This document shows, piece by piece, positions 692 through 40,533 of a stretch of DNA of 64,000 nt. The stretch comes from Promethearchaeota archaeon (GTDB taxonomy: Archaea > Asgardarchaeota > Lokiarchaeia > Sigyniarchaeales > SOKP01), in assembly GCA_048941015.1 (NCBI GenBank), contig JBHLNZ010000003.1, positions 60,797 to 124,796 of the forward strand. The letters run 5' to 3'. The position numbers were made by a program, and so were the translations under genes. Below the pieces are notes generated by a model. That model searched no databases, was not told the DNA's origin, and worked only from the letters and a program-made list of their open reading frames with translations. Positions within the stretch are counted from its first letter, which is position 1, and every line of letters starts with the position of its first letter.

Positions 692-795
692 TGGGAAAGG
701 GGGGCTTCGAACCCCCGACCTCACGGTTATCAGCCGTGCGCTATACCAGGCTAAGCCAATGGAGAGAAGCCTTAAAAAAAGGTTTCTACTCTCCC
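692..795 (-). tRNA. tRNA-Ile(GAU) with 30-nt intron (759-788) at position 7/8
   Basis: Spliced product GGGAGAG TG GCTT AGCCTGGTA TAGC G CACGG CT-GAT-AA CCGTG AGGTC GGGGG TTCGAAG CCCCC CTTTCCC A folds as a cloverleaf. Anticodon at 731-729. Intron bounded by 4-bp helix GGAG/CTCC and 3-nt bulges AGT and ATT. Confidence 0.88.
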
Positions 796-830
796 TAGCC
801 ACATTCCCGTTTCAGAGCTTGATATTTAAT

Positions 831-1474: not shown

Positions 1475-2059
1475 TTATTTTCCACGACCTTTATTAGCTC
1501 TTATACTAGGTCGCGTTTTTTCAGATCCCCATCCTCTCTTTCGTAATCCTCTAGCACGTTTCCCAGCAGAAGTTAAACCACGGGTAACTCTCTTGTTATG
1601 GGGGTTTTTAGATATCCAATTTATTTTAGGATCTGCTTTAATAACAGGATGATGAGGATCGACCATAATTACTTCGTAATACCAATTTTTTCCATCTGAA
1701 TAAACTTTATAGCTGTTTAAAACTTGCATATTAGGATATTTTCTTTGCACTCGTTCTTCAGCAATCCATTGTAAATTTTTTCCAGTAGTATATTTAGAAA
1801 CACCCATAGCACGAGGCTTTCTTCCTCCTTTGGGTCTAACTTTATGCATTCCACCTTTTCTAACTCTCGCTCTAACAACTATATACCCTTGCTTAGCTTT
1901 ATAACCTAAAGATCTCGCGCGATGGAGTTTAGTGGGTCTCTCTACTCTCTCAACTGACTTTCCCTTTCTAAATTCAATTCCTCTTTTCCAATGAGGTGTT
2001 TGATACCCAGTATCATGTTTTTCAAAAGTTTCTTTTAAGTAATTATATCCAGACTTCAT
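1475..2059 (-). CDS. rpl15e: 50S ribosomal protein L15e
   Basis: [55 protein letters not shown]. Confidence 0.97.
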
Positions 2060-17352: not shown

Positions 17353-17485
17353 TGGACCTGGCGGGAATTGAACCCGCGGCCTCGTGAATGCGAATCTCGC
17401 GTTGTATTATTCTTATATATACAATCACGCGTAGCAGTAGAGGTCAGATTTTGAATCCTAACATCTGCGACTAATCTACAGGCCC
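17353..17485 (-). tRNA. tRNA-Ala(CGC) with two introns: 24/25 (17432-17462) and 30/31 (17396-17425)
   Basis: Acceptor GGGCCTG/CAGGTCC with G3:U70 and A73; T-arm GCGGG TTCAATT CCCGC. After splicing the anticodon arm reads CGTGA TT-CGC-AT TCACG. Both introns have a 4-bp central helix and 3-nt bulges. Confidence 0.9.
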
Positions 17486-38406: not shown

Positions 38407-40533
38407 TTGACAACCCCCTTTTCTAGTCCAACTGTTCCAATACATAAAGTTCAAAGATTTGAAGATTTTTATAGGCTATTTGAAGATAAACCAGGAATAT
38501 ATAAATATCAAGATCAAATAAATGATATTTTTTCTAAAGGTGGAAATACCTTAATAATATTTTATGAAGATTTATTAGCCTTTGATTCGCAAATAGCCGA
38601 AATGTTAAAAAAAGACCCTGAATCTCTCATAGAAGATGCAATTGAAGCCTTTAAAAATGTTCTTAAATTTCAGGCAGGAAAATTATCTGATCAACAATAT
38701 TTTGTAAGAATAACAACTAAAGATGAGAAGAGCCCATTAGGTATCCCATTAAGAAGATTAAGAGCAAAAAACATTGATAATTTAGTTTGGACTAAAGGGA
38801 TATTAGTAAGAAGTTCAGCAATTAGACCAAAACTAATCAAAGCTACTTTCGAATGTAGTGTATGTGGTGCTCAATTTGAAATTATCCAACTTACATCAAA
38901 AATAAAGTGGCCAAAGTTTTGTAGTAATAAACGGTGCAAAGCAAAAACCCAATCTGATTTTAGACTTATTTCAAGAAGTTCCGAATTTATAGACTGGCAA
39001 AGTGTAATGATTCAAGAAATACCGGAAGATTTACCACCAGGTAGAATACCGAGATCAATTCAAGCTATTTTAACTTATGATTTAGTAGATTCTGTAAAAC
39101 CCGGTGATAGAATAAAAGTAATGGGGATTTTTCGATCAGTTTTAGCTCAATCTACTAAAAGTATTAATAGTACCCTTTTTAAAACCTTTATAGATGTTAA
39201 TTTTATAGATCCAGAGGATAAAGGAGAAGATTTAATAGATCTTTCAAAAGAAGAGAGGAAATTGATTGAAGATTTATCAAAAGAACCGTTGATTCAAAGA
39301 AAAATAGCAAGATCAATTGCCCCCACTATTTATGGAAGAGAAGACCTTAAGTTAGCTTGCGCTTTAACTCTATTCGCAGGTACTAGAAAAAAGAAACCCG
39401 GAGGAGGGTATAAAAGAGGAGATATTCACATTTTATTTGTGGGAGACCCCGGAACAGGAAAATCAGAGATTTTAAAAAGTGCCATAGATGTATCTCCAAG
39501 AGGTTTATATACCTCTGGTAAGGGATCTACTGCAGTTGGTCTAACAGCTGCAGTTATTAAAGATAGTGATACAGGACAAATGAACCTTGAAGCTGGTGCT
39601 GTTGTATTAGCTAATGGAGGCGTTGCTGCAATTGATGAATTTGACAAGATGGACCCCGCTGATAGGTCTGCTTTGCATGAAGCGATGGAGCAACAGACTG
39701 TAAGTATAGCTAAAGCAGGTATCGTAGCTACATTAAAAGCACAAACTGCTATTATTGCTGCTGCCAATCCAAAATCTGGAAGATATGATCGCTATAAGAC
39801 TCCTACCCAAAATATTAATCTACCTCCTTCACTTCTTTCTAGATTTGATCTGATTTTTGTTGTTGTAGATAGACCAGATCCTGCAGATGATGCTCAAATG
39901 GCAGAATTTATTTTAAAAAATTCTATGATTGAAAGTGAAGAAGAATTAGAAGGAGTTTCTGATGAAATAGCGCCAATTTCAGGAGATCTCTTAAAAAAAT
40001 ATATAAAACATGCTCGAAGAACTTGTAATCCTATCTTGAGTGAAGAAGCTAAAGAAAGAATCAAGGAATTTTATTTAGAATTAAGGGGACAATATGAAAG
40101 TGAAGATGCCATAATTTCAATTTTAGCACGAAACCTTGATGCTCTAGTTCGATTAAGTGAAGCATATGCTAAAATGGCTTTAAGAGATAAAGTAAATAAA
40201 AAAGATGTTGAAAATATTATAAAACTGTTTAGAAGATATCTTAAAGATACTGGTTATGATGAAACCACTGGGAAAATAGATATGGATAGGATTCTGGTAG
40301 GGCAATCAAGGAGCACTATTAGTAAATTAGATAAATTATTAAATAGATTAAAAGAAATATTTGAACAAAACAATTGGAAGGCCTTAGAAAAGAAAAATTT
40401 AATTCAAATTCTCGAATTAGAAGAGGAATTAGATGAAAAATGGATCAAAGATGCACTTCAGGAATTAATAAAAGAAGGCACATTATATGAGCCAAAACAT
40501 AATTTAATAAAGTTTACTAATAGGGAAGACTAA
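38407..40533 (+). CDS. mcm: Replicative helicase MCM
   Basis: Zn finger, GDPGTGKS, LEAGAVVLA..G.AAIDEFDKM, LHEAMEQQTVSIAKAG, LLSRFD. Confidence 0.97.
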   Translation: MTTPFSSPTVPIHKVQRFEDFYRLFEDKPGIYKYQDQINDIFSKGGNTLIIFYEDLLAFDSQIAEMLKKDPESLIEDAIEAFKNVLKFQAGKLSDQQYFVRITTKDEKSPLGIPLRRLRAKNIDNLVWTKGILVRSSAIRPKLIKATFECSVCGAQFEIIQLTSKIKWPKFCSNKRCKAKTQSDFRLISRSSEFIDWQSVMIQEIPEDLPPGRIPRSIQAILTYDLVDSVKPGDRIKVMGIFRSVLAQSTKSINSTLFKTFIDVNFIDPEDKGEDLIDLSKEERKLIEDLSKEPLIQRKIARSIAPTIYGREDLKLACALTLFAGTRKKKPGGGYKRGDIHILFVGDPGTGKSEILKSAIDVSPRGLYTSGKGSTAVGLTAAVIKDSDTGQMNLEAGAVVLANGGVAAIDEFDKMDPADRSALHEAMEQQTVSIAKAGIVATLKAQTAIIAAANPKSGRYDRYKTPTQNINLPPSLLSRFDLIFVVVDRPDPADDAQMAEFILKNSMIESEEELEGVSDEIAPISGDLLKKYIKHARRTCNPILSEEAKERIKEFYLELRGQYESEDAIISILARNLDALVRLSEAYAKMALRDKVNKKDVENIIKLFRRYLKDTGYDETTGKIDMDRILVGQSRSTISKLDKLLNRLKEIFEQNNWKALEKKNLIQILELEEELDEKWIKDALQELIKEGTLYEPKHNLIKFTNRED

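Follow-up and report, generated by a model that had tools for sequence, protein, structure and literature searches.

The window analysed here is the whole stretch of 64,000 nt spanning positions 60,797-124,796 of contig JBHLNZ010000003.1 (assembly GCA_048941015.1, forward strand), numbered from its first letter as position 1. The assembly, referred to below as G000, is a MAG of 3.59 Mb with a G+C content of 29.4%, distributed over 144 contigs, 95% complete and with an estimated contamination of 5%. Its MCM relatives place it in Promethearchaeota/Promethearchaeia (Lokiarchaeia), the group in which the initial annotation had suggested comparing the locus. On the minus strand, direct reading of the sequence gives the order GGGAAUG-UGGCUA-GGGAGAG-(30 nt)-UGGCUUAGCC..., corresponding to a spare heptamer, a linker, and a tRNA-Ile(GAU) gene interrupted by a 30-nt intron after its seventh nucleotide (Table 1). 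CCA is not encoded. An intron at 788-759, position 7/8 of tRNA-Ile(GAU), had been proposed in the initial annotation of this DNA, and the coordinates, bulges and helices given there all match the sequence at 795-692 (minus strand).

Table 1. Features discussed in the text, in window coordinates unless a contig handle is given.
Feature	Coordinates	Strand	Remarks
Spare heptamer GGGAAUG	808..802	-	leader; 6/7 pairs possible with the 3' acceptor strand CUUUCCC (699-693)
Linker UGGCUA	801..796	-	between spare heptamer and G1; similar to tRNA nt 8-13
5' exon GGGAGAG (tRNA nt 1-7)	795..789	-	invariant in 33/33 same-genus loci
Central-helix exon strand (G2-G5)	794-791	-	4 bp with CUCC
Intron (30 nt)	788..759	-	exactly 30 nt in 11 carriers; missing from ~22 orthologs
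Third base of 5' bulge	788	-	within intron
Inner stem	787-779 with 773-765	-	8/9 pairs, one A/C mismatch
Loop of inner hairpin	778-774	-	within intron
Central-helix intron strand CUCC	764-761	-	4 bp with G2-G5
First two bases of 3' bulge	760-759	-	within intron
3' exon (tRNA nt 8-73)	758..692	-	Rfam tRNA match 758-700; 3' acceptor strand 699-693
Anticodon GAU	731-729	-	within 3' exon of tRNA-Ile
Discriminator A	692	-	3' end of tRNA-Ile exon 2
Second interrupted tRNA gene	17353-17485	-	tRNA-Ala(CGC)
MCM gene	38407-40533	+	uninterrupted
RNase P protein Rpp30 gene	C64:37409-37981		
tRNA genes with T-loop intron	C32:34536-34590; C19:7576-7632; C119:70930-70986; C58:84251-84331; C64:57400-57481		the last lies ~3.3 kb before the window start
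tRNA-Ile(GAU) with second insert (L020)	G024:C20 ~1575-1610		genome G024
Extra tRNA-Ile(GAU)-like copy (L049)	G056:C67:769-1013		genome G056

The interrupted gene and its orthologs

Standard tools do not recognise this gene in its unspliced form. ARAGORN made no tRNA call on the unspliced locus with default settings and, with its intron search, miscalled the unspliced stretch as a 118-nt tRNA-Glu, while the Rfam tRNA model matched only at model positions 8-63 (758-700; 40.5 bits). Removal of 788-759 gave a 74-nt product that ARAGORN called as tRNA-Ile(gat). The resulting cloverleaf has a 7-bp acceptor stem including one G5/U68 pair, a D arm, an anticodon stem (CACGG/CCGUG) and a T stem (GGGGG/CCCCC), and it carries the conserved U8, A14, G18-G19, U33 and T-loop bases.

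Comparison within the genus gives the same junction. Of the 42 genomes of the genus, 30 share a 67-nt 3' exon that is 100% identical (31 if G020, at 99%, is counted). At about 22 of the same-genus loci the gene is uninterrupted, GGGAGAG being followed directly by UGGCUUAG. Eleven genomes (G000, G003, G007, G012, G015, G018, G020, G024, G042, G043 and G046) have exactly 30 nt between G7 and U8, with exons otherwise identical. Since the relatives read GGGAGAG|UGGCUUAG directly, the predicted spliced product is the sequence that they encode, and the junction foreseen in the initial annotation is thus present in some 22 intron-less genes.

No second copy of tRNA-Ile(GAU) was found in the 95% complete G000 assembly; another intact copy beside an untranscribed locus was one of the observations that the initial annotation had listed as telling against its proposal. 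Eight of the ten other intron-bearing genomes likewise have exactly one exon match. The exon match of G024 falls below threshold owing to a second intron, and the extra matches in G007 are short T-arm/acceptor fragments. Because this assembly holds no other tRNA-Ile(GAU) and most other carriers also have a single exon match, the interrupted gene, judged from these genomes, would have to work.

Two further loci depart from this pattern. The tRNA-Ile(GAU) of G024 combines the 7/8 intron with a second insert of ~30 nt, located on the 3' side of the anticodon stem. G056 has an extra, diverged tRNA-Ile(GAU)-like copy, 88% identical to the exon and with a 5' part unlike an acceptor/D arm, which may be a pseudogene or an element-borne tRNA.

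Interrupted tRNA genes are common in this genome. Many carry a T-loop intron of ~28-30 nt (at ~58/59), some with a D-arm intron in addition; they include genes for Asp, two for Gln, Thr(CGU) and Arg(UCU). T-loop and D-arm introns are so widespread that standard tools find only ~25 tRNAs in the genome. The second interrupted tRNA gene of the window has acceptor strands GGGCCUG/CAGGUCC and an anticodon loop UUCGCAU, which identifies it as tRNA-Ala(CGC). One insert of ~30 nt precedes its anticodon loop and a second lies in its D arm; the gene was missed by ARAGORN and scored only 18 bits with Rfam.

Splice motif and processing machinery

In this genome, G2-G5 and CUCC form the central helix, flanked by a 5' bulge A6 G7|U788 and a 3' bulge A760 U759|U758, and the inner stem closes the intron. 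We assessed this register in an ungapped 90-column alignment of the 11 intron-bearing precursors, in which the exons are invariant and the intron interior is highly variable. In it, G2-G5 pair with intron nt 25-28, A6-G7-N is the 3-nt bulge, and intron nt 2-10 form the inner stem together with nt 16-24. It pairs 90.2% of cells, as against 41-65% when the partners are slid by one to three columns. The central helix is paired in 95.5% of cells across the 11 genomes, with GC/GU variation on the intron side. The nine pairs of the inner stem are formed in 87.9% of cells, and seven of them show compensatory change on both sides; 22 doubly changed cells were observed in the 11 genomes, compared with 8.0 in shuffles. 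The bulges A6-G7|N and A-N|U8 are present in all 11. The splice sites of the initial annotation, after the second base of each bulge, thus lie in a register that covaries across 11 genomes.

Another register is not kept in the orthologs. In the minimum-energy fold of this genome, the central helix is longer and the stem is displaced by three, giving a continuous hairpin that lacks the 3-nt bulge; at slide -3, 53% of cells pair, and a hand-drawn rival structure reached 69%.

A canonical outer helix is absent from the 11 genomes: only 38% of its cells pair, G1/G9 and N-2/C11 never do, and sliding the register by one yields wobble pairs only. The 5' splice site is flanked by H and h', the 3' splice site by H and the junction toward the D stem. 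As the outer helix is missing, the predicted motif is H-B-h' at the 5' site, that is, the relaxed HBh'/BHL type, with a 3' site (A-N|U8) that would open into the acceptor/D-arm junction. The initial annotation had described an imperfect outer helix and a relaxed BHL, and its assignment of type agrees with the motif found here.

Without an outer helix, cleavage requires an EndA of broad specificity. Broad-specificity tRNA-splicing endonucleases are either (alpha-beta)2 enzymes with an L1 loop or epsilon2 enzymes. We found a single EndA gene in the genome; its 205-aa product has both Pfam endonuclease domains and, among solved structures, is closest in sequence to the homotetrameric alpha4 enzyme of M. 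jannaschii (1a79), which has strict specificity. It is the only alpha-type gene detected, and no second (beta) subunit was found in the genome. Asgard archaea have been assigned an (alpha-beta)2 EndA with an L1 loop that permits relaxed motifs (PMC5829648). Genes for the RtcB ligase and for the RNase P protein Rpp30 are also present. The Rfam RNase P RNA model RF00373 gave no match in the genome even at E = 10, and this RNA may be divergent or unassembled.

Given the orthologous junctions and the covarying register, we regard the intron itself as solid, and the locus very probably functions as a tRNA-Ile(GAU) gene, its protein-spliced intron being of archaeal type, lying between nucleotides 7 and 8, having a relaxed motif and being processed by EndA and RtcB. 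In the precursor, the acceptor-strand bases G2-G5 would pair with CUCC near the 3' end of the intron as a 4-bp central helix, A6-G7-U788 would form the 5' bulge, and a hairpin of 8-9 bp would close the intron. On the other side, A760-U759-U8 would form a 3' bulge that opens into the acceptor/D-arm junction instead of an outer helix. EndA would cut after the second base of each bulge, and RtcB would join G7 to U8.

A proposed spare acceptor strand in the leader

Such an intron borrows the 5' acceptor strand for its splice helix, and it is here that the upstream heptamer becomes of interest. A heptamer GGGRRNG lies 13 nt (once 14 nt) upstream of G1 in 11/11 intron-bearing loci, with 6-7 of 7 possible pairs to the 3' acceptor strand; none of the 21 assessable intron-less loci has it at that place. 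It occurs in five variants (GGGAAUG, GGGAAAG, GGGAAGG, GGGAGAG and GGGGAAG), and across the 11 loci 74 of 77 cells pair with CUUUCCC. Its substitutions are mostly A/G exchanges opposite U that keep the pairing, the exception being U6 in three genomes, where a U/U mismatch results at position 6 (3/11). Mean pairwise identity among the 11 genomes is 0.75 for the heptamer, compared with 0.45 for the linker, 0.44 for the 3 nt upstream and 0.37-0.56 for the intron interior.

The heptamer also changes together with the intron, 7 of 7 phylogenetically independent contrasts being concordant (p = 0.016). These contrasts show linkage and not function, because the two elements lie 13 nt apart; heptamer and intron would be gained, lost and exchanged jointly even without a functional link. 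Among the ~36 tRNA genes recognised in this genome, the tRNA-Ile gene is the only one whose 5' strand is displaced from U8, and no other 5'-proximal intron was seen among them, some tRNA genes being still unfound. No comparable leader heptamer was found at the ~35 other tRNA genes, apart from one weak GU-rich match (TGATTTG, 6/7) 31 nt upstream of tRNA-Arg(UCU).

Several neighbouring sequences were also inspected. Three closely related intron-less loci (L010, L033 and L043) have G(U/C)GGAAG 32 nt upstream of G1, with 6/7 pairs to the 3' acceptor strand, which is probably chance. The linker was considered as a surrogate D-stem strand, since its GCU (in 7-8 of 11) could pair with the 3' strand of the D stem, and was set aside for showing no excess over slid controls. 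A decayed heptamer was sought in the intron-less alleles closest to G042 (those of G009 and G017); these loci have only the tRNA and ~95 nt downstream in common with it. Promoter mapping gave no clear start: TATA-like boxes cluster 42-47 nt before the heptamer, and this at just 5-6 of the 11 loci.

In the minimum-energy fold of this genome's precursor, the heptamer is paired with the 3' acceptor strand. We folded ten precursors by partition function, either with the natural heptamer or with the heptamer replaced by AAUAAUA or deleted. The predicted probability of pairing between heptamer and 3' strand is 0.73 in this genome and 0.38-0.99 in the orthologs. The central helix is predicted at a mean probability of 0.58 when the heptamer is natural and at 0.11 when it is replaced or deleted (close to zero in 8/10); the true 5' strand then takes the 3' strand as its partner (mean 0.83). 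In 9 of 10 orthologs, the predicted fold changes to the acceptor stem, at the expense of the splice helix, once the heptamer is removed. Shuffled heptamers of matched composition, however, retain a mean central-helix probability of 0.40 as compared with 0.58, the natural heptamer outdoes all 20 shuffles in only 6 of 10 loci, and this genome's own precursor forms the central helix at 0.98 with and 0.90 without it. As the shuffles keep much of the effect and the central helix here forms regardless, these predictions lend modest support to the proposal that a purine-rich strand at this place frees G2-G5 for the splice helix.

We lean slightly towards the view that the heptamer substitutes for the 5' acceptor strand for as long as G2-G5 are engaged in the splice helix. 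With the true 5' strand so occupied, the leader heptamer would pair with the orphaned 3' acceptor strand, so that the tRNA body stays folded and the splice helix is spared competition from the acceptor stem. Once ligation has made the true strand contiguous with U8, that strand would replace the heptamer at the 3' strand, and RNase P would remove the 13-nt extension along with the remaining leader. What the sequences show is the gene structure, the junction, the covarying motif and the association between heptamer and intron; EndA cleavage, transcription of the heptamer, its helper role and this order of processing we infer. Whether the arrangement is general, such that archaeal tRNA genes with introns borrowing the 5' acceptor strand carry a selected stand-in strand in the leader, as a cis RNA chaperone, is in our judgement an evenly balanced question. 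As far as we can see, the helper strand is a testable and apparently unpublished idea.

A serious rival, which we rate as possible if somewhat doubtful, accepts the intron and sees in the heptamer a functionless relic of its origin that travels with it at a distance of 13 nt, for example after tandem duplication of tRNA nt 1-13 and insertion into the second copy. Heptamer and linker do resemble such a copy in this genome (GGGAAUG-UGGCUA versus GGGAGAG-UGGCUU), and tight linkage alone accounts for both the 11/11 versus 0/21 split and the seven concordant contrasts. The reproduction of much of the folding effect by G-rich shuffles, and the formation of the splice helix in this genome without the heptamer, likewise speak for a relic. 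A relic does not readily explain, however, why heptamer identity is so far above that of the linker, the 3 nt upstream and the intron interior, why nearly all heptamer changes are purine exchanges that keep pairs with an invariant 3' strand (74/77 cells), or why heptamer removal in 9/10 orthologs shifts the predicted fold to the acceptor stem.

It is far less probable that the heptamer is the true mature 5' end, with a 43-nt intron (linker, GGGAGAG and the 30 nt) removed at 7/8 or at positions up to 13/14, the latter register arising where the linker repeats UGGCUU. In its favour, GGGAAUG as 5' strand likewise yields an ARAGORN call of tRNA-Ile(gat), the minimum-energy fold contains the heptamer-3' strand pairing, and the GGGAAAG of G007 and G046 would form seven Watson-Crick pairs. 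Against this, GGGAGAG at the proximal site does not vary across 33 loci and serves as the 5' strand in all intron-less genes; the distal heptamer comes in five variants, and in three genomes it would leave a U6/U67 mismatch, although the remaining 67 nt of this tRNA are unchanging. At the distal site a helix-bulge-helix cannot be constructed, since the linker does not pair with what lies 5' to the strand of the central helix and A5 would face C, and the 13/14 register fails in G003, G018, G020 and G024, where the linker is not UGGCUU-like. A mature tRNA starting GGGAAUG, which the initial annotation had named as evidence against its own reading, is thus disfavoured by the invariance of GGGAGAG, the variability of the heptamer and the lack of a splice motif of its own. 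That we are dealing with a pseudogene in decay or an artefact of assembly, with AUU and AUC read by another tRNA, scarcely merits belief: default tRNA finders do miss the locus and the MAG is split over 144 contigs, with contamination estimated at 5%, but the same structure recurs in 11 independent assemblies within a conserved L15e/tRNA/kinase neighbourhood, the exons are 100% conserved, the intron stem covaries, and a second tRNA-Ile(GAU) was not found.

Evolution of the intron and comparison with known systems

The distribution of the intron was examined on an MCM tree of 29 genus members and two outgroups. Its presence requires at least seven changes on this tree, the earliest branches are intron carriers, and a single intron-bearing clade is rejected (p-AU ~3e-54). 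Sister genomes with near-identical MCM differ in intron state (G015/G014; G042 vs G009/G017; G000/G054), and other sister genomes have similar introns, such as G012 and G042 (identity 0.90). Overall, intron identity correlates weakly with MCM identity (rho 0.27). MCM, uninterrupted in G000, matches in two pieces (residues 1-432 and 429-708) inside open frames of 1,180-1,246 aa in G007, G011, G042, G043 and G057, an arrangement typical of an intein.

Both allele classes share a neighbourhood, with ribosomal protein L15e upstream and a P-loop kinase downstream, and between G018/G020 and G022 both flanks are orthologous. A separate case is that of G015 (L005) and G014 (L016), which are 93% identical over 1.57 kb downstream, beginning exactly at U8, and have zero homology over 1.5 kb upstream; G015 and G007 have another upstream flank in common. 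The homology break at U8 between G015 and G014 is a local rearrangement.

Two mobile origins were considered and rejected. Integration of a mobile element at the tRNA does not agree with the upstream neighbours, an unannotated ORF and L15e, or with L15e synteny in both allele classes, and for intron transposition there is no paralogue in the genome beyond chance AT-rich matches of 11-17 nt. We read the pattern as either one old intron with many losses, or alleles that would have been swapped by recombination.

The presence/absence polymorphism, with 11 versus ~22 genomes in one Lokiarchaeial genus, is a ready-made test system. Intron-bearing and intron-less alleles alternate at one syntenic locus, a rare natural experiment on the gain and loss of tRNA introns among the prokaryotes most closely related to eukaryotes. 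Where the acceptor stem is taken up by an intron, two folds, splice helix and acceptor stem, stand in opposition. If the leader strand resolves this conflict, it would represent a novel type of cis helper for tRNA maturation and a previously undescribed element of pre-tRNA processing, and it would bear on how introns persist at positions that disrupt the tRNA core. There is also a practical warning for the annotation of Asgard genomes: AUU and AUC are among the commonest codons in this 29% G+C genome, and their sole decoder here is invisible to default finders.

Many non-canonical positions of tRNA introns are established, the extreme case being 3/4, within the acceptor stem (PMC4090602, citing Sugahara 2008), and tRNAscan-SE 2.0 was built to seek introns near tRNA ends (PMC8450103). 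Our literature search found no paper naming position 7/8 and none on a leader copy of the acceptor strand; three position catalogues (Sugahara 2008; Marck and Grosjean 2003; Tocchini-Valentini 2011) lay outside it on both points. The suggestion in the initial annotation that a 7/8 intron is novel is upheld only in part: the papers found do not name the position, and non-canonical tRNA introns have already been published for Asgard archaea.

The intron most resembles the non-canonical BHB/HBh' introns of archaea (Thermoproteales and others), in being short and non-coding, with a 4-bp central helix, 3-nt bulges cut after the second base, an inner hairpin of free sequence, and exon bases within the motif. 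It differs from them in its position at 7/8, the acceptor/D-arm junction, which is unnamed in the literature found; in a 3' bulge that opens into a multi-helix junction, with the outer helix absent; and in the conserved spare acceptor strand of its leader.

With the published Asgard tRNA introns it shares the host group, the many non-canonical positions, the escape from standard finders and the repeated changes of presence and absence among relatives; this genome also resembles those cases in its many T-loop and D-arm introns. Those studies centre on Atabeyarchaeia, Freyarchaeia and Jordiarchaeia and on D-arm and T-arm positions, mention acceptor-stem or junction cases only as 'few', and do not describe a leader element.

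The trans-spliced split tRNAs of Nanoarchaeum equitans and Caldivirga maquilingensis offer the other parallel, in that sequence outside the mature tRNA shapes the precursor for EndA. There, the extra sequences of two separate transcripts pair with one another and build the BHB itself. In tRNA-Ile, by contrast, there would be a single transcript, in which the duplicate of one exon strand binds the opposite acceptor strand at a distance from the cuts.
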